Below the pieces are notes generated by a model, which worked only from the letters and a program-made list of their open reading frames with translations, had not been told where the DNA came from and ran no database searches. The position numbers were made by a program, and so were the translations under genes. This document shows, one piece after another, positions 3,454 to 35,033 of a stretch of DNA of 41,432 nt (its first letter is position 1; each line of letters begins with the position of its first letter). The DNA lies in the IMG/VR virus record IMGVR_UViG_2563366824_000008. The stretch is one strand, 5' to 3'. This stretch comes from a virus. Lineage: Duplodnaviria; Heunggongvirae; Uroviricota; Caudoviricetes.

Positions 3454-3494
3454 ATCCAATAAAACAGGGAGGATTACTAATAATCTCCTCCCTG
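3454..3494 (-). terminator. rho-independent terminator after the tailspike gene
   Basis: On the minus strand: CAGGGAGGA ... TCCTCCCTG stem followed by TTTTATTGG; 21 nt downstream of the tailspike stop. Confidence 0.5.
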
Positions 3495-3514
3495 CATCCA
3501 TATAATAAAATATA

Positions 3515-6415
3515 TTAATTAGTTATTTTTCCTTCCAATTCTTCAATCCTCTTTATAATATTTTTCTGACGTATACCTAATGCAGCAATCATTAGATACT
3601 GTAATTCATCATTTCTGAATGCATAGCGTTCTCCTGCTTCATGCGTAATAGTTATAGCCTCACGAACAAGGTTACCTTCATCATCATAAACAGCAGGATC
3701 TGTATCTGCATATGCATCCCATCTGTCATAGCAGATCGCTCCGTATTTAAATGGATCAAGTCCATTCTCTCTGAATATTTCCATTGCCCGTTGCACCGTA
3801 AGTCCGGCATGAAGTCTGGCATCAGCTCCCTTATTTTTTACACTATCAAGCCATTGATAAAAACCAATTTCATCAACAAGAGCTAACCCAACAGCCTGCT
3901 CTTTATCGGAAAGAGTTCTGACTTCCGTTTTCTCTGTTGCATCAGATGTATTTATAGTTGCAGTCCCTGCGTAGACCTGAGAAAAGCGGTTAACGGACCT
4001 TCCAAGTGATACCTGGTTATCAGTTGTTGGCCTTAATGTCGTCGTCGCCCATGTCGATGTAGTATCTTTAGTCGCAGAAAATACTGTTACATTCCCCTGC
4101 TTAAGTCTGACGACACCTCCATCTGTAGAGGCAAGTATCAACTCACCAGCCGCAGATGGACAATCAGCAGCATGGATATCAATATAAGCACCACCTGCAG
4201 TATTCCCATCTTTAGAACGGAACTGCATACCTCGAAAGTTTGAGTCGAATACTGCTTTCGTACTTACCCATGAATTATTGTCATGTCCGTAATCTGTATC
4301 AAACAGGTTAAGGTTATTTCCATAATTCAACTCGAGGGATTTGGTATACTCTCCAATGGCTTCGTCAAATATCGCAATAGTAAATGAACCGTGCTCACGG
4401 TTAAAGGCGATATCAGTTCCAGCATAATATTGATGCGCGGTTCCGGTATACGGATCGGATTCTGCGCCATGCACTGGATGGTTGCCAAGAATATCAGACA
4501 GGTTTGCTACTCCAAACAGATGCTTATTTCTGCGAGTATAATCGCCTGATTTATATGTTGCACCTGAATCCCATTCACCATTTGTCGCTGCAAGCGATGT
4601 TTTTAACCAATAAGACCTGTTTGTCGGAAGATTTCCCTTGTTATCACCAGTAACAGTACTTACCCAATTTTTGCCACGATGACTTACAACATCCCCTGCG
4701 CTTTTCCATACATCCATAGCACCACAGACAAGTTCATCACCTCTTATTGCCAGCCCTTCAGGCTCAAAGCTAACCGGAACTCCGATTTTAGAGTCAGAAC
4801 CATTTAACTGAGTCTCTGTATAAAGTGATGCGGCAAGTGATACAGGAAACGAACGTATTAGCGTACCACCCATATCATAAATCTGGACTGTCCTTACGCA
4901 TCTTGCAGGAACGCCACCCCAAATTGTGTAAATATATCTGCTATCTGATGTAATACCCTGAAGTGTTGCACCATACTGACCTTTACCACGAACAAGTGGA
5001 ACAGGACCATTAATCGGTCTAACTTTCATTGGGCTAGAAGAAGATTCCACTTCTTTGCGATCATATACATATAAAAATCGGCCAGTCCCAGTGTTTGATG
5101 TCGCAATTAATATGACATATCGCCCATCATTAGATACACAAATACTTGCCCGCTGCGCAAGGTTAATCAGATTATTATCACCAGGCTCACCAAATACTCG
5201 GTAATGAGTTATATCTTCAGCAGATGTTGATGCCCCTTTCCATTTTGTCTTTGAATACCCCTTCCCTCCTAGAGAGGAACCAGTCTCAGCAATTGTTGTT
5301 GTAAACAGATATAGTTCACCGTTCTCTATTGTGGCAGAAAGATCTGACCCGTGACCAAGAGGCAATGGCTCTGTAAATGTCACAACAGAAAGAGTTGAAC
5401 CATCGCTTGTATAGTGCCACTCACTGATCCTTGTGAGGGTGTCCGTTCCCCAGTTAGAACCTCCAACCTGTTGAGTGATAAAAACCTTCTCAATACCTTC
5501 ATGCCTTACACAAGCTATTCCCTGCAATGCGTTTTGTGCATTCGCATATATAGTTGGCGCATTGATATCATCACCAAAATTCAGGGTCGCAAGTTTTCTT
5601 TGTCCAATGGAGAAACTTTGCATCGGCGGATTAACGGAAATGCGAACACCATTACTGATTAGAACACCATCACCGGAGAAGCGTGAAATATCTATTTTCG
5701 ATGCATCAACTATATATTCCCCTGCAGGAACATGAACAATTTTAGAGTTTAACTGTGCATTTATAAAAGCATTTGTATCATCATTAATTAAGTCTGCTTT
5801 TGCCCCAAAATCCTTTACGCTATAAACGTCACGCATCTTATCCTGGAACGTTCGGTATACTGCTCCAGAACCATACTGAATAAACCATCCGAAACCACCG
5901 ACAACACCAGCAATTGCAGCATCCACATACTTACGCATTGAGCGATTATTTACAGCATCCTGCTCAAATGATGGATCTGCAAGGTTAGAAATTTTGTTTT
6001 GCTTTGCATCGTAATATTTTGCAAGCAAAGATGGTTTCATCAATGCACGTCTGAACCACCCAAAACATTGCTGGATCAGCATCGTCAGGTAGTCAAAGGC
6101 ATCTTCATGCACTTCGGGGAAAAATTTTCCCTGATTGCGAAGGTCTGTCTCCTGCACTACATCAAGCACACGATCTATCGTAATTCGCCATCCAGCAGCA
6201 AGCGGCGACGGAAGAACCACAGAACCGCCACTATAAGTGCCCGCCCCAGTTACCGTATAACCGGTATCCAGAACCAATTCTGTTACGTTCCCGTTCAGGT
6301 CAGACACCTGAACAACCAGGTCTGATTTTTTGAAAATACGGAAGGTATACGGAAACGATGTCGTAACGCCGTTACCGGTGTATTCGTTGTGGTCAACTTC
6401 GGTTGAGACCGTCAT
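3515..6415 (-). CDS. tailspike/tail fiber with beta-helix depolymerase-like body and C-terminal intramolecular chaperone domain
   Basis: 966 aa; N-terminal virion-attachment region; VKDFGAKADLINDDTNAF pectate-lyase-like beta-helix start; C-terminal segment (TLSDKEQAVGLALVDEIGFYQW...) resembles the self-cleaving S74 chaperone of tailspikes. Confidence 0.8.
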   Translation of the reverse strand: MTVSTEVDHNEYTGNGVTTSFPYTFRIFKKSDLVVQVSDLNGNVTELVLDTGYTVTGAGTYSGGSVVLPSPLAAGWRITIDRVLDVVQETDLRNQGKFFPEVHEDAFDYLTMLIQQCFGWFRRALMKPSLLAKYYDAKQNKISNLADPSFEQDAVNNRSMRKYVDAAIAGVVGGFGWFIQYGSGAVYRTFQDKMRDVYSVKDFGAKADLINDDTNAFINAQLNSKIVHVPAGEYIVDASKIDISRFSGDGVLISNGVRISVNPPMQSFSIGQRKLATLNFGDDINAPTIYANAQNALQGIACVRHEGIEKVFITQQVGGSNWGTDTLTRISEWHYTSDGSTLSVVTFTEPLPLGHGSDLSATIENGELYLFTTTIAETGSSLGGKGYSKTKWKGASTSAEDITHYRVFGEPGDNNLINLAQRASICVSNDGRYVILIATSNTGTGRFLYVYDRKEVESSSSPMKVRPINGPVPLVRGKGQYGATLQGITSDSRYIYTIWGGVPARCVRTVQIYDMGGTLIRSFPVSLAASLYTETQLNGSDSKIGVPVSFEPEGLAIRGDELVCGAMDVWKSAGDVVSHRGKNWVSTVTGDNKGNLPTNRSYWLKTSLAATNGEWDSGATYKSGDYTRRNKHLFGVANLSDILGNHPVHGAESDPYTGTAHQYYAGTDIAFNREHGSFTIAIFDEAIGEYTKSLELNYGNNLNLFDTDYGHDNNSWVSTKAVFDSNFRGMQFRSKDGNTAGGAYIDIHAADCPSAAGELILASTDGGVVRLKQGNVTVFSATKDTTSTWATTTLRPTTDNQVSLGRSVNRFSQVYAGTATINTSDATEKTEVRTLSDKEQAVGLALVDEIGFYQWLDSVKNKGADARLHAGLTVQRAMEIFRENGLDPFKYGAICYDRWDAYADTDPAVYDDEGNLVREAITITHEAGERYAFRNDELQYLMIAALGIRQKNIIKRIEELEGKITN

Positions 6416-6519
6416 GTTAAATCTCCAGATAGTCGCAGCACCCGTTGCGCCGCATATCTGGTTATTCTATTACCTGAAAAACCACATATGGATAGAAAGA
6501 CTGTGAATACGAATAGATA

Positions 6520-6534
6520 TTACCTTTCGGGTAA
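6520..6534. promoter_or_regulatory. candidate repressor operator TTACCTTTCGGGTAA
   Basis: Perfect copy of the recurrent TTACCT-N4-GGTAA inverted repeat, 77 nt upstream of the 6611 start. Confidence 0.5.
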
Positions 6535-6571
6535 TTTGCAAAACGTGCTGGATAGCAAACAAATTATTTGC

Positions 6572-6591
6572 TACTGTATAAATATACAGTT
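6572..6591. promoter_or_regulatory. LexA (SOS) box overlapping a -10-like element
   Basis: TACTGTATAAATATACAGTT matches the CTGT-N8-ACAG LexA consensus with an AT-rich spacer; overlaps TGTATAAAT; 20 nt upstream of the ATG at 6611. Confidence 0.7.
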
Positions 6592-6610
6592 ATTGCATGG
6601 AGAAGATAAG

Positions 6611-6868
6611 ATGCAGCAGTATCACTATCCACTGGAAGACGGATTTACCGAAAGGATTCACACGCCGGGAGGCGTCAGGTCACTGGTGGAGGGATCGCAT
6701 TTGATGAAATTACTCCGGGATCTCGATAAGGATGGATTTAATGTCGATGGCCCACTTGCCGAACTGACTGCACTGATTAACTACGTCACCAGCTCACAGA
6801 TGTCTATGCGGGATCTGCAAACACATCTCGACTATTGTGCCGAACAATTACGAAAACAAACCAGATAA
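6611..6868 (+). CDS. small antirepressor-like protein, paralogous to the C-terminal domain of the adjacent Ant
   Basis: Start taken at the internal ATG 6611 (RBS GGAGAAG) of ORF 6488..6868; 85-aa product aligns by eye with the last ~70 aa of the 7184..7879 protein (shared positions include LM-LL, DG, AELT, RD-QTH-Y). Confidence 0.6.
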   Translation: MQQYHYPLEDGFTERIHTPGGVRSLVEGSHLMKLLRDLDKDGFNVDGPLAELTALINYVTSSQMSMRDLQTHLDYCAEQLRKQTR

Positions 6869-6899
6869 GATTTGAAATTACCAAGAGGAGTGCTTATAT

Positions 6900-6914
6900 T
6901 TACCTTTGCGGTAA
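6900..6914. promoter_or_regulatory. candidate repressor operator TTACCTTTGCGGTAA inside a 12-bp inverted repeat
   Basis: Perfect motif copy lying in the loop between CAAGAGGAGTGC (6883..6894) and GCACTCCTCTTG (6924..6935). Confidence 0.45.
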
Positions 6915-7006
6915 ATTTACATCGCACTCCTCTTGTGCCATAGTAATCGGGCACTGGCAAAATCCAGTGCCGGGATTGGCGTCCCGGATTACTAAAAGGC
7001 GTATTC

Positions 7007-7026
7007 ACCGCGCAAGCGGTTTTTTT
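7007..7026 (+). terminator. rho-independent terminator (GNRA-loop hairpin plus T-run)
   Basis: ACCGC-GCAA-GCGGT followed by TTTTTT; about 140 nt after the 6611..6868 stop. Confidence 0.5.
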
Positions 7027-7183
7027 ATGCGTATAGCACGGCCACATTCGTATTATGGTGGGCTGTGTGGGGGCACCGAAAGGTGCGCCGGGTCCTTTTA
7101 GCCGGTTACGCCAACCCTGCACAGTTCACCACCAACCGATTGGCGTCGGTAGTGGTGATTAACCAGACTAAAAGGTAACCACT

Positions 7184-7879
7184 ATGACAGCTACAAAAAG
7201 CACGTCCATTTTTTCTTTCGAATCCCAAGCCGATATACGAGTAATCGTCATTAATGGTGAGCCATGGTTTATCGCTTCAGATGTTTGTCGGGCTATAGGC
7301 ATAGCAAATCATCGAGATGCTGTTAGAAAACTTGATGATGATGAGAAGGGCGTCGCTTCAACCGACACCCCTGGCGGTGAGCAAGAATCGATCATCATCT
7401 CCGAGTCAGGCCTCTACACACTGATCCTCCGCTGCCGCGACGCAGTGACACCAGGCACTATCCCCTACCGCTTTCGTAAATGGGTTACAGGTGAGGTTCT
7501 TCCTCAGATCCGCCGCACCGGAAGTTACATTAAAAACTCGCTCCCGCAGGAAGAACGCATAAAGATAGTTGCCGACCAGGTAGCCAACGCCACAGCATCA
7601 GCAGTGATGCAGGCAATGAAGATAGAGAACAAAACCTACAGTGCCCCACTGAAGCCCGGCTACCGCAGCCTGATTCACTCGCCGTCGGGTGTTCTCGGCC
7701 TGACGGAGAACTCACTGCTGATGAATCTGCTGAACCAGTTGCAGGACGACGGGCACGACGTATCGGGCGCGGCGGCGGAGCTGACCACCATGTTCTGCTA
7801 CATCGTCGGTGTGAGCAAATGCCTGCGTGATATCCAGACCCACGCGGAGTACATCAACGACAAAGCAGGGTTCTTCTGA
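7184..7879 (+). CDS. ant: antirepressor with BRO-N (KilA-N-like) N-terminal domain
   Basis: 231 aa; N-terminal region (VIVINGEPWFIASDVCRAIG...) matches the BRO-N/antirepressor signature as remembered; RBS AAAAGGTAA; C-terminal domain paralogous to the 6611 product. Confidence 0.75.
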   Translation: MTATKSTSIFSFESQADIRVIVINGEPWFIASDVCRAIGIANHRDAVRKLDDDEKGVASTDTPGGEQESIIISESGLYTLILRCRDAVTPGTIPYRFRKWVTGEVLPQIRRTGSYIKNSLPQEERIKIVADQVANATASAVMQAMKIENKTYSAPLKPGYRSLIHSPSGVLGLTENSLLMNLLNQLQDDGHDVSGAAAELTTMFCYIVGVSKCLRDIQTHAEYINDKAGFF

Positions 7880-7949
7880 CGGCGGCGGCACAGGGATGTG
7901 CCTTTAAATAATTCTGTACGATTGCAGACTGTGGGTGAATAGCGTACTA

Positions 7950-7964
7950 TTACCTCAAGGGTAA
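7950..7964. promoter_or_regulatory. candidate repressor operator TTACCTCAAGGGTAA
   Basis: Perfect motif copy 60 nt upstream of the 8025 start. Confidence 0.45.
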
Positions 7965-8024
7965 ACGGATTGGTTTCATTTTTATTAATCCGTGTAATGA
8001 ACTTATGAGATATGAGGTAATGTC

Positions 8025-8204
8025 ATGCGAAACGAAAAATTGCAGATGCGTAGAGCGCAAGCTGCCGCAAGACGTTCTTTCAATGGAAGCGTAGAGTACG
8101 TAAAAGTTACTATGACAAAAGATCACGCAAGTCGCGTATCCCGCGCTTTCTTTGATTCTCGTAACAATAAGGAAAATTATGAGTTCGTCTGCGTCGCAGA
8201 ATGA
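8025..8204 (+). CDS. small basic protein (candidate antitoxin), not in the ORF track
   Basis: 59-aa ORF translated by hand; RBS GAGGT 6 nt upstream of the ATG; overlaps the next gene by 26 nt in another frame. Confidence 0.4.
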   Translation: MRNEKLQMRRAQAAARRSFNGSVEYVKVTMTKDHASRVSRAFFDSRNNKENYEFVCVAE

Positions 8205-8724
8205 TAAAAATCAAATTGTCAGATATAAGGGTCGAGTATTGCATACGCAAAATTTCTCGGCCCTTTGTGCATCTGATCTTGAGCTGAAGAAAGTATCTGA
8301 TGCCTTTGCCCAGTATTGGAAAACGGGATACCATCCATCTCTTGGTAAAGATGCTGCATTTGCTCGTCCGACAGAAATGCTTAAACTAAATGTCAGGCAT
8401 ACTCATGTCGATAACCAAGACTATATTCCAGAAGATAGTGATAAAAAACACACTGGTAAAAAATCATCTTGGGATGCATGGAAAAATATAGCGTCTGTAC
8501 AAGTAAAATGCATACCAACAAGTGATTGCTTTTTAGTTTATTCGGTAAATCACAATCGTGATGCGCTGGTTATGTTTTTTGTTGACGCAGATGCTCACAA
8601 CATAACTGAGCAAGAAGAGTTTAAAGAGGAAGCAATCACTATCAGTTATCAATTCTTTGAGAAAACAAAAACAGAACCAATGCCTTTAGAAGAAGATCTT
8701 TTTTCTGATAAATGGAAGGAATAG
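8179..8724 (+). CDS. candidate toxin, possibly YafO-like
   Basis: Start taken at ATG 8179 (RBS AAGGAAAA) within ORF 8152..8724; 181 aa; segments DAF-QYWKTG..P.LGKDAAF, HTHVD and CFLVYS resemble my recollection of the YafO ribosome-dependent mRNA interferase family; not verified. Confidence 0.4.
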   Translation: MSSSASQNDKNQIVRYKGRVLHTQNFSALCASDLELKKVSDAFAQYWKTGYHPSLGKDAAFARPTEMLKLNVRHTHVDNQDYIPEDSDKKHTGKKSSWDAWKNIASVQVKCIPTSDCFLVYSVNHNRDALVMFFVDADAHNITEQEEFKEEAITISYQFFEKTKTEPMPLEEDLFSDKWKE

Positions 8725-25510: not shown

Positions 25511-25525
25511 TTACCTTTCAGGTAA
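25511..25525. promoter_or_regulatory. candidate repressor operator TTACCTTTCAGGTAA with adjacent TTGACA
   Basis: Perfect motif copy; TTGACA at 25489..25494 immediately upstream; 320 nt before the tRNA. Confidence 0.45.
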
Positions 25526-25847: not shown

Positions 25848-25924
25848 GTGGCATTAGCTCAGTTGGACAGAGCAACCGCCTTCTAAGCGGTTGGTCGCAG
25901 GTTCGAATCCTGCATGCCACGCCA
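25848..25924 (+). tRNA. tRNA-Arg, anticodon UCU (argU-like)
   Basis: 77-nt cloverleaf folded by hand: acceptor GTGGCAT/ATGCCAC, D arm GCTC/GAGC, anticodon stem ACCGC/GCGGT with loop CTTCTAA, T arm GCAGG-TTCGAAT-CCTGC, discriminator G, encoded CCA. Confidence 0.9.
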
Positions 25925-26584: not shown

Positions 26585-28060
26585 TTAAGCATATGGATCG
26601 TAATCTGTGATGGCCTTGCCTTGCTGGTTCTGCTGCCCGGGAATTCGCAGACGCTTCGACACAGGGAACGCAAACGTCAGCAGTAGCGCATCGCCTTTAC
26701 CAGGAGAACGCCCAAGCCGCTCCTTGATATCTTCCTTCGGTTCGATAACGATTTTACCGTCCACTCGAACTTTGTACTCTGCCGCAGACAGGTCGTCCGC
26801 TGTTTCCTGGTCATCCAGCATGCCGCCCAGCCTCAGCCATGTCTTACATGAGTTGAACATCTCCCCACGCTTGTTAAGCATCTGCGGGTCAGTGGACGCA
26901 CCGCCGAACGGAACAAGTTGCCATGTACGTCCCCAGCCATCACCGATTGACTTCAAACCGGTTCCGTAACCGAAGTCGATGAACACCGCGTCAGCCTGAT
27001 ACTGGTCTTCAAAGTCAGCGATACGCTTCGCCATAATCAGATCGTCGGTTGTCTTGTTGCCAGTCCATAGCACCTTACTGTGCAGCCCCTGCCGCAGGTA
27101 TATCGCCGCGTCATCAACGCCTGAATATGCCGGGTCAACACCGATTATCACCGGAGCATGCGCCACCTGCGCAGCGGTTACCACCCGTTTCATTGCCTCA
27201 TCAGTAAGACCGGTAGGGATAAACTGCAATTCAGATGCATCAGGGAATATGCCGCGCACACGGATTTTAACGAAGTCGCTGTCTTCCCCGTAGTCATCAA
27301 CCCATTTCTGCAACTGCTGTTTGTTAGTGCCTTCCACCGTCCGGCTGTCAATCTGCGCAGTTTTCCAGCGGTGTTTATATTTGCGGAAACATTCACGGAA
27401 TCGCCCGGTATTACGCGTCGGGTTTCCGAACGCCACCCAGATAATCTCAGTGTCTTCGTCCGTTAGCGCACCTTCGGCAACTTCCCACACCAGATCCGCA
27501 ATATTCGACGCTTCATCGAATACCACGATGATGCGTTTGCGCTCGTTGTGTAGTCCGGCGAATGCCTCAGTGTTGTGCTCAGACCAGGGGATTGCGTCAG
27601 CTCGCCACCGCTTGTCGTGTCCAGGGTCATTGCTGTACATCGCGGTAGCTGTACAGGTAAACCAGTCTTTCGTGATAGCAAGGTTTGACCACTTGATAAT
27701 TTCCGGCCAGGTCTTCGTTCGTAGCTGGTTGTCGGTGTTGGCGGTCACCACGACCTTACAATCCTCGCAAGTGGACATGCCCCAGTTGATCAGCATTGAG
27801 ATGAATGCGGATTTACCAATACCGTGACCCGAAGCACGTGCCAGCATAAGCGGCTGATAGCGCGTCTCTGGATTCTGCAGGTGATCACGTATCTCTCGGA
27901 ACGCATCGGCCTGCCACTGACGTGGACCGGTGGCATGTGCCAGTTCAGTACCCTCTTCCCCCCACGGGAACGCATAGAGGGCATAGCCAAGCGGATCGTG
28001 AGTGAACCCTGCAATATCCTCGATCAACTGCTCTTCAGGAGATAACGCTGTATCTGTCAC
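26585..28060 (-). CDS. terL: terminase large subunit
   Basis: 491 aa; Walker A-like GHGIGKS; acidic ATPase motif VVFDEA; C-terminal nuclease-like region; 4-nt overlap with terS. Confidence 0.85.
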   Translation of the reverse strand: MTDTALSPEEQLIEDIAGFTHDPLGYALYAFPWGEEGTELAHATGPRQWQADAFREIRDHLQNPETRYQPLMLARASGHGIGKSAFISMLINWGMSTCEDCKVVVTANTDNQLRTKTWPEIIKWSNLAITKDWFTCTATAMYSNDPGHDKRWRADAIPWSEHNTEAFAGLHNERKRIIVVFDEASNIADLVWEVAEGALTDEDTEIIWVAFGNPTRNTGRFRECFRKYKHRWKTAQIDSRTVEGTNKQQLQKWVDDYGEDSDFVKIRVRGIFPDASELQFIPTGLTDEAMKRVVTAAQVAHAPVIIGVDPAYSGVDDAAIYLRQGLHSKVLWTGNKTTDDLIMAKRIADFEDQYQADAVFIDFGYGTGLKSIGDGWGRTWQLVPFGGASTDPQMLNKRGEMFNSCKTWLRLGGMLDDQETADDLSAAEYKVRVDGKIVIEPKEDIKERLGRSPGKGDALLLTFAFPVSKRLRIPGQQNQQGKAITDYDPYA

Positions 28061-28653
28061 TGATTACCATCCTGACGTTCTTTGAGTCGCTTCCTGGCTG
28101 CTGCTATGCGATCAGCAATTGTCACATTCACATTAACATCCAGACGTTCTTTGAACGCGTTGACATCAACATGCTTACCAATCAGTTCTAGGTTCTTCAC
28201 CTTGTCAGGCCATTTAATTTTTTTGAGGATTGTCTCTATCGAATCCTCGTTCATGTTCATGATGGTCGATGACAGATCAAAGCCACTAAGCGTAGTGCGC
28301 CAGATTTTCGGCCACTCACGGATTGGTTTAAGGCTCCCATCGTCGTTGAGGATATCGATCACGTCCATCTGGTCGATCTCCACCAGGCGCATGAGAACGT
28401 AATCAGCACTGACGCGCATTCGTTTGTTGCGCTCCTCCATCAACTCGGCAATCCGTTTTTGAATGCGTTCATCGCGCATCATGACACTGGCTTTAACTGC
28501 CGCTGTATTTGGGGAAAATCCTGCGTTAATCGCTGCCTGAGTCTGGTTTTCAGGCGTTTTGATGTATGACTGGCAATAAGCCTCCTGCATTGCTGTTAGT
28601 GGCTTAAATTGCGTTGATTTGCGTTTATAGGTTTTAGGTTCAGCAGGCATCAT
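28057..28653 (-). CDS. terS: terminase small subunit
   Basis: Start set at internal ATG-ATG with GGTGG RBS (ORF 28057..28731); DNA-binding N-terminal region; directly upstream of terL. Confidence 0.65.
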   Translation of the reverse strand: MMPAEPKTYKRKSTQFKPLTAMQEAYCQSYIKTPENQTQAAINAGFSPNTAAVKASVMMRDERIQKRIAELMEERNKRMRVSADYVLMRLVEIDQMDVIDILNDDGSLKPIREWPKIWRTTLSGFDLSSTIMNMNEDSIETILKKIKWPDKVKNLELIGKHVDVNAFKERLDVNVNVTIADRIAAARKRLKERQDGNQ

Positions 28654-28763
28654 AACCACCGTGGTAATAGTTACCGTTGTGGTAATAGTACCATGCAAAA
28701 TAAAGCCGCCATAGTTGGCGGCAGTATTCAAAACCCATCAAATTCATCATGCATAATCTACTC

Positions 28764-31985: not shown

Positions 31986-32062
31986 TTACCTCTAAGGTAA
32001 TTAAAAACCACATAAGACACGAAATCAATAGAGTTTAGAATATTTTGTTACCTTATAGGTAA
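31986..32062. promoter_or_regulatory. two candidate repressor operators between P-like and downstream genes
   Basis: TTACCTCTAAGGTAA (31986..32000) and TTACCTTATAGGTAA (32048..32062). Confidence 0.5.
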
Positions 32063-32099: not shown

Positions 32100-32900
32100 T
32101 TACTTGATAAATCCTGCCGCCTTTCCCCGCCTGTATTCCTCCATCAGCCACTGCGCCGGTGTTATTCCCCCGAGGGTGGCGGCGTTAGGCATGCACCCGA
32201 AACTTCGCCCTGGTGGATGGTAAACGTCTCTCCCTGTGTCCGGAGGTGTACTCATGGGCTCTGGCTTTGCCTGTATGCTGATCACCGGATCGGGTATCTG
32301 CTGTCCGGAAGCCACCTTTTTCGCCCAATCATCGAGCAACCTGCGCGCGTGTTTCTCAACCTCAATCTCGCTAAGCTGGCGCTGATACATTGCACGGCGG
32401 GTATCACATACGACCCAGTACATAACCGGATGCCGCCACGGGAATCTTTCGGGACCACCAGGATATAAACTTTTTTCCTTGCTGTACCGGTGAAACTCCG
32501 CCATCACATCGTCAATGGTGACGCCAAGAACCATCTTGCTGTCTTTGCACCACTTGATGAATTGCCCTGGCGACGGCCAGAACGGAGATTCACTGGCGCG
32601 GGCGTGGCGCATACCAGCAGAAACCTGTTCACGGGTTCGGATCCCCCCTTCGGCAAACGCAGCAATCCACTGCTGTTTTGCAGCGACTTCCTGCTCTGGC
32701 GTCTTCAGGTTGGTTACCACTGCCGCCGGAAACAGTTGTTTCAGCTGTTTGAAAAGGGCATCAACAAGCCTCTCTGCTGACATGTTCACCACATTGTCAT
32801 TGTTGACGTACTGATGCTCATAACCTGACATGCGAGAAAGGGCTTCTCCGTCACGGTTTTGTATCGCGGTAAAAACGTTGTTCACAAGAAATCCTCCCAT
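32100..32900 (-). CDS. replication protein P-like (DnaB helicase loader)
   Basis: 266 aa; segment QQWIAAFAEGGIRTREQVSAGMRHAR...PFWPSPGQFIKWC aligns with lambda P as I recall it. Confidence 0.7.
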   Translation of the reverse strand: MGGFLVNNVFTAIQNRDGEALSRMSGYEHQYVNNDNVVNMSAERLVDALFKQLKQLFPAAVVTNLKTPEQEVAAKQQWIAAFAEGGIRTREQVSAGMRHARASESPFWPSPGQFIKWCKDSKMVLGVTIDDVMAEFHRYSKEKSLYPGGPERFPWRHPVMYWVVCDTRRAMYQRQLSEIEVEKHARRLLDDWAKKVASGQQIPDPVISIQAKPEPMSTPPDTGRDVYHPPGRSFGCMPNAATLGGITPAQWLMEEYRRGKAAGFIK

Positions 32901-33697
32901 GCTTCAGGGCTGTTCCAGTGCGGAACGTTGTTATCAGGTAATGTTGATTGCTTCTGTCTGCTAATCTGCAGCCGCCTTGCCAGCTTCTGCTCCCACTGTG
33001 CCTGATGGTATGCCTTACCCTCAGCCATCCAGTAAATTCTGAACTCTGCAAGTTCCTGTGCTGTTGGCAGACTGTCCAGGTAGATCCCCTGCAATGAGCT
33101 TTTCCGAAGAAAGTCATCTGATGGCTGCCATTGTTCATGCATGACAAATTTGCCTAATTGCCCTGGCCCACCAGGAGGAACAAAGTTATTCATCACGGCG
33201 TTGTTTGCGCCGGGGTCATGAGGCACAGAACCTCGGGTTTTTGTCCTGCTCTCCCTCTCTTGGTTAAATGACTGGTTATATGACTGGTTCTGGATCCCGT
33301 TTTTGGGATCATTCAACATCCCGTTTTTGGGATCATTCAACATCCCGTTTTTGGGTATATTCCCGTTTTCGGGAACATTACCGTTTTCGGGTTCATTGCT
33401 CCCTTTCCGGTTGCCTTTAATGTTCCCGTTTTTGGTTATATTAAGAGAGAAAACCCGCACTCTTTTCGTCGCTCCCTTTCTCTCTCCGGTATCTGAAATA
33501 AGCCCCATTTTCATGAGCGATATAAGTCCGGCCTGCACGGTTTTTTTATTCAGGCAAGTGTCTTTAACGAGGCGTTCTATGCTGGGGTAGCAGAGGTTAT
33601 ATTCATCGGCTCTGTCAGCCATCGAGAGCAGTATGAGCTTTAATGATGAGCTACCTGGATCTGTCTCCCAGGCCCAATCTGTTGCATGTCTGCTCAT
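32882..33697 (-). CDS. replication initiator O-like protein with in-gene origin iterons
   Basis: 271 aa; N-terminal winged-helix-like domain; central repetitive linker (PKNGMLND x2 and related) encoded by DNA direct repeats; C-terminal domain upstream of the P-like gene. Confidence 0.65.
   Translation of the reverse strand: MSRHATDWAWETDPGSSSLKLILLSMADRADEYNLCYPSIERLVKDTCLNKKTVQAGLISLMKMGLISDTGERKGATKRVRVFSLNITKNGNIKGNRKGSNEPENGNVPENGNIPKNGMLNDPKNGMLNDPKNGIQNQSYNQSFNQERESRTKTRGSVPHDPGANNAVMNNFVPPGGPGQLGKFVMHEQWQPSDDFLRKSSLQGIYLDSLPTAQELAEFRIYWMAEGKAYHQAQWEQKLARRLQISRQKQSTLPDNNVPHWNSPEAWEDFL
33294..33445. repeat. iteron array (candidate origin of replication)
   Basis: Two perfect 24-bp units ATCCCGTTTTTGGGATCATTCAAC (33294..33317, 33318..33341) followed by 3-4 degenerate CCCGTTTT(T/C)GGG-containing units. 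Confidence 0.6.
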
Positions 33698-34448: not shown

Positions 34449-35033
34449 ATGAAAAGTATCCAGGACGTCCGCAGGCAAAATCTCAACGACTTGATCGACC
34501 GTGAATTCAATGGTGTTCAGACGCGGATGGCAGAAAAACTTGGAACTCAGGCAAATCTGGTAAACCGCTGGGCTCTTGGCAAGAAGGTTATCGGCGACCA
34601 GGTTGCGCGAAAAATTGAAGCTGCCGCCAATAAACCCCGTAACTGGCTTGATATCGATCGCTCGCTTTCTCAGGAAGGTTTTCAGCCTGTCGGCCCAAGC
34701 GACATTGGTCAGCTGGCGGCTCACAACCTGGAACGCTGGATGAGCGAAAGCCGCGACCTTTCAACACAGGGAAAACTTCACCGCGCATCCGGCGTCGCCC
34801 AGGTGACAATCAGCCGCCTGTTAAACAATGAGGTCAGCGTTTCCATTTCCACCCTGGAGAATGTTGCATCCGCATTCGGGCGTCACGGCTATGAATTACT
34901 GATTCACCCGCACGACCCTGCGACTATCAACTATGACCGCTCGCGCTACGCATTGTTACCCGAAACAGAGAAGGCAAAGATCGAAAGTTACATTGAATTT
35001 GTCATCAGCCAGAACGAAAAAAACAAACAATAA
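34449..35033 (+). CDS. prophage repressor candidate with two HTH domains and no autocleavage domain
   Basis: 194 aa; two XRE-like HTH segments (QTRMAEKLGTQANLVNRW and HRASGVAQVTISRLLNN); no LexA-like Ala-Gly / Ser-Lys cleavage module seen; followed by its own terminator. Confidence 0.6.
   Translation: MKSIQDVRRQNLNDLIDREFNGVQTRMAEKLGTQANLVNRWALGKKVIGDQVARKIEAAANKPRNWLDIDRSLSQEGFQPVGPSDIGQLAAHNLERWMSESRDLSTQGKLHRASGVAQVTISRLLNNEVSVSISTLENVASAFGRHGYELLIHPHDPATINYDRSRYALLPETEKAKIESYIEFVISQNEKNKQ

Follow-up and report, generated by a model that had tools for sequence, protein, structure and literature searches.

Why would a temperate phage encode one antirepressor fold in two neighbouring genes, each behind a control region of its own? 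The question is raised by a viral DNA of 41,432 nucleotides (IMG/VR record IMGVR_UViG_2563366824_000008), which is called here the window and belongs to an epsilon15-like phage (Uetakevirus), a temperate phage of E. coli; the region concerned has 95–98% DNA identity to the phages TL-2011b, vB_EcoP_ZX5 and phiV10. Two open reading frames (ORFs) on the plus strand are at issue, 6611..6868 with a product of 85 residues and 7184..7879 with a product of 231 residues. A preliminary description, made from the letters of the sequence, had noticed a likeness between the two products and had taken it for a duplicated effector module, probably repressor-binding, expressed once alone under LexA control and once fused to a BRO-N domain. 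We give a probability of roughly 60% to a reading in which the same Ant fold, specific for the phage repressor Rep, is encoded twice, once as an SOS trigger and once within an immI-like cassette.

One antirepressor fold in two genes

The likeness seen by eye is significant, and far beyond chance. In a BLASTP comparison, residues 2–75 of the 85-residue protein align without gaps to residues 150–223 of the 231-residue protein, with 32 identities over 74 positions (43%), 57% positives and an E value of 3e-16, and all the motifs that had caught the eye (LM-LL, DG, AELT, RD-QTH-Y) lie inside this alignment. The ORF coordinates of the preliminary description agree with the ORF list, and its BRO-N assignment was borne out by Pfam, where Bro-N (PF02498) matches residues 17–107 of the larger protein with an E value of 2.4e-21 (76.6 bits against a cut-off of 25.6).

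What the shared part consists of is indicated by the matches to a protein of solved structure. The small protein matches the PDB chain 5D50_E, the anti-repressor of the Salmonella phage SPC32H, with an E value of 1.4e-46 and about 87% identity, and residues 150–226 of the larger protein match the same chain with an E value of 1.9e-13. Both also fall into the PHROG family phrog_450 (7e-48 for the small protein, 6e-36 for the large one), which is labelled “unknown function” in PHROGs; the Ant fold has no Pfam family. To judge from these matches, the small protein is the ortholog of SPC32H Ant and the two genes are paralogs within one module, this module being the entire Ant fold and not a fragment of it. 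The duplicated part proposed earlier is thus real, but it cannot be called a C-terminal module of the small protein, since nearly the whole of that protein is shared. In the larger protein the domain matches give a BRO-N domain at residues 17–107 (7232–7504), a helical linker at about residues 116–147, and the Ant module at residues 148–231 (7625–7876). The proposal that the shared module is a repressor-binding effector fits well with its being the full fold of SPC32H Ant (PDB 5D50), for which binding to the repressor is established. Kim et al. 2016 (PNAS 113:E2480; PDB 5D50 and 5D4Z) reportedly solved the structures of SPC32H Ant and Rep and showed the binding of the one to the other.

The synonymous sites of the paralogs are saturated, hence the duplication is old rather than recent. 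A structural comparison was also made: the AlphaFold2 model of the 231-residue protein, built from 35 aligned sequences, has a mean confidence score (pLDDT) of 72, with 61–77 in the module, and a Foldseek search of this model against the PDB gave nothing with E < 0.001 and did not recover 5D50. A full-length model and a small helical module make poor Foldseek queries, and with no structural match the homology rests on sequence statistics.

Both genes are under purifying selection. Against the orthologs in Enterobacter phage Tyrion and a Klebsiella phage, the ratio of nonsynonymous to synonymous substitution rates (dN/dS) is 0.07–0.18 for the small ant gene, 0.07–0.21 for the BRO-N domain of the larger gene and 0.15–0.25 for its Ant module. 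The identities within the BRO-N gene are mosaic: the BRO-N domain is 85% identical and the linker 19% identical to the Klebsiella phage, while the figures for Tyrion are 68% and 88%, which points to exchange at the domain boundaries. Of 5426 complete E. coli genomes, 238 (about 4%), O157 and O103 strains among them, contain at least 80% of the two-gene stretch (6500–7900).

Two control regions

The small gene, ant (6611..6868), has the same location as its counterpart in SPC32H, between the tailspike and injection genes. It is preceded on the plus strand by a LexA box, TACTGTATAAATATACAGTT (6572..6591), the core of which, CTGTATAAATATACAG (6574–6589), lies 22 nt 5' of the ant ATG and is the single A+T-rich CTGT-N8-ACAG site in the window. 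In our own comparison the box equals the E. coli consensus at 18 of 20 positions. It is kept 5' of ant in SPC32H, Tyrion and the Klebsiella phage, that is, in four lineages with the window included. The LexA control that had been proposed for the standalone copy therefore appears well founded, and no LexA box was found at the BRO-N gene between 6869 and 7183. For SPC32H, Kim and Ryu (J Virol 87:11775) reportedly described in 2013 an ant promoter under LexA, together with a Rep that is not cleaved in the SOS response and is inactivated by Ant. SPC32H Ant is a tetramer according to the citing literature.

It is common for gene callers to stretch the small ant to 126–127 residues (6488–6868 in the window), in which case the palindrome described below is translated as YYL[ST]GN. 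We rejected the 126-residue ORF from 6488 as a gene-caller artefact, as it runs through both the putative operator and the LexA box. The small ant is named “hypothetical protein” in the E. coli phage and RefSeq records looked at, and anti-repressor in some Salmonella phage records.

The region before the BRO-N gene is of a very different kind. Two RNA families are found there on the plus strand by Rfam, an IsrK-family small RNA (sRNA) at 6951..7026 (RF01394, 77.4 bits against a gathering threshold of 50) and a C4 antisense RNA at 7051..7136 (RF01695, 77.7 bits against 45). The separate terminator and leader that had been noted before the fused copy are indeed present: the terminator-like hairpin given by a terminator scan at 7007–7026 is IsrK's own, and the leader is made of the IsrK and C4 RNAs. 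The predicted fold of C4 (-45.6 kcal/mol) leaves unpaired the loop CCUUUUAG (7094–7101) and the segment ACGCCAA (7108–7114). These have perfect complements of 8 and 7 nt in the leader of the BRO-N gene, CUAAAAGG at 7168–7175 and UUGGCGU at 7140–7146, and again in IsrK, where copies of CUAAAAGG and UUGGCGU occur at 6992–6999 and 6976–6982. The site at 7168–7175 covers the Shine-Dalgarno sequence, 9 nt 5' of the ATG of the BRO-N gene. The pairings were obtained by an ungapped search limited to the unpaired segment of C4; unconstrained RNAduplex runs gave long, uninformative duplexes.

Comparison with other phages makes these pairings more convincing. C4, leader and IsrK partners change jointly in the Klebsiella phage, Tyrion and an Stx1 phage, which with the window make four lineages. 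In the Klebsiella phage the compensatory pair is CCGUUUAG/CUAAGCGG, with the IsrK partner CUAAACGG; in Tyrion it is CCUUUGUAG/CUACAAAGG, with CUACAGAGG, and there the other site (site a) reads AGACCAA/UUGGUCU; in the Stx1 phage AU5 it is CCUUUUUC/GAAAAAGG. IsrK and C4 were also found by Rfam in four related loci, and the IsrK stretch of an Stx phage matches in addition the Rfam family c4-a1b1 (“a1, b1 targets of C4”). An IsrK–C4 leader with co-varying pairing places the BRO-N gene in a cassette of the P1 immI or Gifsy-1 isrK–anrP type. In the Stx phages the same leader stands 5' of an unrelated antirepressor (ORF6N + P22_AR_C) that has no Ant module, so the leader behaves as a mobile regulatory cassette.

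An upstream ORF of 35 codons (7055..7162, plus strand), beginning within C4, is a possible counterpart of Gifsy-1 orf45 or P1 icd, of uncertain status. It has no Pfam match, and in the Klebsiella phage, as we read the alignment, its stop is lost and the frame continues into the ATG of the antirepressor gene. Homology to icd/orf45 or to “Ash” was accordingly set aside, there being no Pfam match and no conservation as a separate ORF. As for spacing, TL-2011b has an extra segment of about 1.1 kb (3491–4579, “similar to hypothetical protein”) between the small ant and IsrK that the window lacks, and the distance between the two circuits is thus not fixed.

A third element may tie both genes to the repressor itself. 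The palindrome TTACCTTTCGGGTAA (6520..6534), of the form TTACC-N5-GGTAA, lies 5' of the small ant promoter, and a second palindrome of this form, TTACCTTTGCGGTAA (6900–6914), lies between two tandem promoter-like sites that lead into IsrK on the plus strand (6872..6944; TTGAAA-17-TATATT at 6872–6900 and TTTACA-17-CATAGT at 6916–6944, from a promoter scan). The window has 13 copies of the motif where 0.45 would be expected, an enrichment of about 30-fold: pairs flank rep (34331/34379 and 35091/35153), another pair is at 31986/32048, and single copies are at 6520, 6900 and 7950. A search for palindromes with a 6-nt spacer found none, the actual spacing being 5 nt. SPC32H has 18 copies against 0.65 expected, clustered round rep and with one copy 5' of ant. 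At 6520–6534 the palindrome is kept in four lineages, with differing spacers; four epsilon15-like phages likewise keep the half-sites at the IsrK promoter and differ in the N5 spacer. The Klebsiella phage, Tyrion and phiV10 also keep the promoter hexamers. The Stx-phage leader has no such palindrome. Judged by its distribution, TTACC-N5-GGTAA is probably the Rep operator. If Rep does bind it, the BRO-N gene would be doubly blocked in a lysogen, its transcription by Rep and its translation by C4.

Further palindromes lie elsewhere, one at 25511–25525, 5' of a tRNA-Arg(TCT) gene (25848–25924), and a close pair at 28653/28671 (28653–28685) inside a minus-strand ORF (28057..28731) that is the positional match of the small terminase gene of SPC32H.

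The presumed common target of both antirepressors is Rep (34449..35033, plus strand; 194 residues), which matches PDB 5D50_A, the SPC32H repressor, with an E value of 4.1e-42 and is 41.8% identical to SPC32H Rep by tblastn. Homologs of Rep and Ant co-occur in essentially the same 35–36 phage records. The small Ant is far better conserved than its target, and the window and SPC32H use the same operator motif despite the divergence of their Rep proteins.

The Ant module on other chassis, and what two circuits would do

Searched exhaustively with a profile, 1.8 billion cluster representatives yielded only 69 with the Ant module (E ≤ 0.001), which is thus a small family. Among named records the module is confined to enterobacterial hosts. 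Within this small family the module is found behind five N-terminal domains: BRO-N, AntA, Phage_pRha, ORF6N and P22_AR_N. Those fusions whose loci could be examined (BRO-N, P22_AR_N and AntA; for Rha and ORF6N there are protein sequences only) each stand behind a control cassette of their own. The P22_AR_N fusion is gp42 of TL-2011b (6488–7672), with a module 91% identical to that of the window, in a segment that the window does not have. It has the layout of P22 immI, with the gene for an Arc-like repressor and a sar antisense RNA beside it, and TL-2011b thereby has three genes with an Ant module. The AntA fusion, an internally deleted copy, is in an E. coli prophage at guaA (L009 9780–10531), between the early-left operon and int; the Rep of this prophage is 99% identical to that of the window. 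It is preceded by an RNA of the sRNA-Xcc1 family (62.9 bits), whose loop CUUUGAAG complements the ribosome-binding region of the gene, CUUCAAAG, and an upstream copy.

The two paralogs have also recombined with each other. There are natural chimeras of 84 residues with the N-terminal half of the small Ant and the C-terminal half of the BRO-N module, joined at the shared DGHDVSGAAAE. At the chimera locus (L012 3820–4480) the whole IsrK–C4–BRO-N segment is deleted, and the upstream operator and LexA-like box and the downstream YafO operon are kept; the chimeras evidently arose by deletion between the paralogs. Proteins that looked like a standalone “type-B” module of 95 residues were discarded as a separate form: the one checked is the remnant of a 5'-truncated BRO-N fusion and no independent gene.

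There is one published experiment that touches the fused protein directly. ORF4 of phage ZX5 is the ortholog of the 231-residue protein (module 98.9% identical, region 98% identical in DNA), and the ZX5 Rep is identical or nearly so. When ORF4 was overexpressed in infected cells, lysogens fell 1000-fold in titre, from 1e9 to 1e6, and rep mRNA dropped by 75% (Li et al. 2022, Pathogens 11:1445; PMC9782041).

These observations suggest the following scheme. A Rep that is not cleavable would have to be removed by protein antirepressors, and the small Ant would be the primary SOS trigger: LexA cleavage frees the ant promoter, and the Ant tetramer would bind Rep and take the Rep tetramer off its operators, as established for SPC32H. 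The BRO-N–Ant fusion would be held by two locks, one on transcription from the tandem promoters with their Rep-operator-like palindrome, and the other on translation, where C4 from the same transcript would pair with the ribosome-binding site. IsrK, a short terminated product of the same promoter that carries both C4 targets, would titrate C4 and open the ribosome-binding site. The fusion should then appear only if IsrK outweighs C4 and Rep is missing or in the course of removal. On infection it would bias the decision against lysogeny, which agrees with the ZX5 data; after SOS induction it could form a positive-feedback lock-in. The C4 of a resident prophage may also silence an incoming copy in trans, with the lineage-specific C4 sites defining immI specificities. 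That the fused module binds Rep is something we infer from its sequence, and we also infer the timing of BRO-N–Ant action and the role of the BRO-N domain. There is a precedent for an antirepressor, FsoA, that is controlled by the repressor of its own phage, and for small antirepressors controlled by LexA (PMC3121763).

A broader idea, which we offer only tentatively and hold to be less probable than the two-circuit scheme, is that the Ant fold is a portable, Rep-specific “warhead” mounted on at least five antirepressor chassis, so that one non-cleavable Rep may integrate two or three independent inputs in a single prophage. The control element differs with the form: a LexA box with the standalone Ant, IsrK/C4 with BRO-N, an sRNA-Xcc1-type antisense RNA with AntA and, in TL-2011b, arc/sar with P22_AR_N. 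On this idea, given the tetrameric state of Ant, standalone and fused chains could even co-assemble into mixed tetramers with new properties.

Several points weigh against the two-circuit scheme. The operator assignment comes from the distribution of the motif alone. The ZX5 result was obtained by overexpression and does not resolve which domain acts, and the fused module is only about 40% identical to the small Ant. A search for a parallel between the identities of Ant (or its module) and those of Rep from phage to phage proved uninformative: against the Salmonella phages Ant is 83–87% identical and Rep 42%, against the Klebsiella phages 60–64% and 45%; with three or four lineages and a small Ant that does not track Rep, sequence co-variation gives no support. 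The cassette is moreover absent from SPC32H, from other Salmonella relatives and from the E. coli phage PAS61, although the Rep of PAS61 is the same. The Ant module of the phiV10 gene is frameshifted by a deletion of 16 bp (window 7726–7741), leaving annotated products of 194 and 29 residues; the O157 typing phages 9 and 10, for which tblastn likewise gives a match split in two, very likely share the phiV10 lesion. The cassette is dispensable. The BRO-N domain, too, is left without an explained role, since 85 residues suffice in SPC32H.

The preliminary description had supposed that the split might separate SOS-triggered induction from another signal. For this, the IsrK/C4 leader would sense a non-SOS cue such as stationary phase or low Mg2+ and make BRO-N–Ant in a stable lysogen. 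Gifsy-1 provides a model for it: IsrK of the family found here before the BRO-N gene rises there in stationary phase and low Mg2+, its overexpression activates the translation of AnrP and induces the prophage, and spontaneous induction in minimal medium is lost when its promoter is deleted (PMC4825925). The ZX5 lysogen also releases 1e7 plaque-forming units (PFU)/mL spontaneously. We consider such an independent trigger unlikely, however, as the leader showed no sensor element, and as the palindrome that flanks rep also sits on the promoter; if Rep binds there, IsrK and BRO-N–Ant are off in the lysogen. The palindrome on the promoter argues instead that BRO-N–Ant acts on infection or after Rep removal.

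Another explanation would give the fusion a different target, its Ant fold serving mainly to tetramerise or to bind a heterologous repressor while BRO-N supplies the real activity, such as DNA binding or cross-talk between prophages. The tetrameric state of SPC32H Ant, the identity of only about 40% between the paralogs, the slow evolution of BRO-N, which by dN/dS (0.07–0.21) changes at least as slowly as the module, and the documented cases of antirepressors acting on non-cognate repressors (PMC3121763) all lend it something. Yet an SPC32H-type Rep accompanies the module in every examined genome, whatever the N-terminal domain, and the attachment of five unrelated N-terminal domains to one module argues that it is the constant C-terminal part which gives specificity. 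ORF4 affects the lysogeny decision of ZX5 itself (PMC9782041). A different target is hence less likely still than an independent trigger. The least probable of all, and to our mind very improbable, is that the BRO-N gene is decaying cargo, a roleless remnant of a mobile antirepressor cassette. The frameshifts in phiV10 and in typing phages 9 and 10, the internally deleted and 5'-truncated copies (P0135, P0138, P0131) and the absence of the gene from PAS61 and the Salmonella relatives are what such decay would look like. The copy in the window is intact, however, the constraint on the module (dN/dS 0.15–0.25) holds across phages of Escherichia, Enterobacter and Klebsiella, and the RNA pairing sites keep their compensatory changes; at least 80% of the stretch 6500–7900 persists in those 238 of 5426 E. 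coli genomes, and the ZX5 ortholog is active when expressed (PMC9782041).

Neighbouring features and known systems

On the 3' side of the BRO-N gene (7922–8724) is a two-gene operon resembling a toxin–antitoxin pair, in which an ORF of 59 residues (8025..8204, phrog_6685) overlaps a YafO-toxin-like gene (8152/8179..8724, phrog_1651); the YafO_toxin Pfam match, at 9e-06, is barely above the cut-off. The third single copy of the palindrome (7950–7964) abuts a weak promoter-like site found by eye, TTGCAG-17-TACTAT, so that the YafO-like genes may also be part of the Rep regulon. Much farther along, at 33261–33397, there are iteron-like tandem repeats, a 24-bp unit ATCCCGTTTTTGGGATCATTCAAC repeated 2.6 times and then an 18-bp unit repeated 3.1 times, inside a minus-strand ORF (32882..33697). 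The gene at the matching position in SPC32H (SPC32H_044) is annotated “putative DNA replication protein”, and the repeats are thus probably a replication origin.

Every component of the two-gene locus is of a known type: the LexA-gated Ant, the C4/IsrK-gated antirepressor (P1, Gifsy-1), domain shuffling, and paired antirepressors. LexA-gated small antirepressors are known from SPC32H, Gifsy, 186 (Tum) and N15 (AntC) (Lemire et al. 2011, PMC3121763). Neither SPC32H nor LexA turned up in a text search of the ZX5 paper, and in the available text neither the small Ant, which is annotated as hypothetical, nor the RNA leader or the shared module is mentioned (PMC9782041). We also found no description in the literature of two antirepressors (three in TL-2011b) that share the solved Ant fold under different control cassettes. 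What the locus offers is no new mechanism but a useful, natural dissection of antirepressor modularity, in which the C-terminal fold of a multi-domain antirepressor has a solved complex with its repressor and works alone in a sister phage, and in which one N-terminal domain (BRO-N, AntA, Rha, ORF6N or P22_AR_N) can stand in for another, as can the regulatory cassettes. It makes testable, in tractable E. coli systems (ZX5, phiV10), what BRO-N-type domains add to an antirepressor, and also why prophages carry several antirepressors against one repressor.

The closest relative is the Ant/Rep system of SPC32H, with which the window shares a small gene about 87% identical, in the same location and with the same LexA box and upstream palindrome, and a homologous Rep; the BRO-N protein, too, has this fold family in its last 84 residues. 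Unlike SPC32H, which has the standalone gene only, the window phage adds IsrK, C4 and the BRO-N fusion of a 40%-identical paralog, and its Rep is 42% identical.

Iyer, Koonin and Aravind reportedly described in 2002 (Genome Biol) the shuffling of domains among phage regulators of the BRO-N, KilA-N, Rha, ORF6N, AntA and P22_AR_N kinds. The occurrence of the Ant module behind BRO-N, AntA, Phage_pRha, ORF6N and P22_AR_N follows the same pattern. It differs in that the Ant fold also exists as an autonomous protein of proven function, and in that we did not find it listed among the known C-terminal partners.

For the immI region of P1 and P7, Citron and Schuster reportedly described in 1990 a c4 antisense RNA, icd and ant behind a C1-controlled promoter (Op51 in P1). 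Here as there, a C4-family RNA lies on the same transcript and strand as the antirepressor gene that it targets, there are two pairing sites, and target copies are present both upstream (a1b1, corresponding to IsrK) and at the ribosome-binding site. The tandem promoters likewise bear a palindrome that resembles the operator of the main repressor, and the differences in C4 sites between lineages parallel the heteroimmunity of P1 and P7. The effector, in contrast, is of the epsilon15-type Ant fold and not P1 Ant, and the icd-like upstream ORF is not conserved.

With Gifsy-1 and its isrK–orf45–anrP locus, the repressor family is different, and what stands out in the window is that both antirepressors share one effector fold. 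The regulatory likeness is close: in Gifsy-1, too, an IsrK sRNA with a read-through terminator lies 5' of the antirepressor gene (PMC4825925), and IsrK is followed by a processed RNA with stretches complementary to it (Hershko-Shalev et al. 2016, PMC4825925). There as here, one prophage combines a LexA-gated small antirepressor, GfoA in that case, with a larger one, AnrP, that is gated by IsrK (PMC4825925, PMC3121763).

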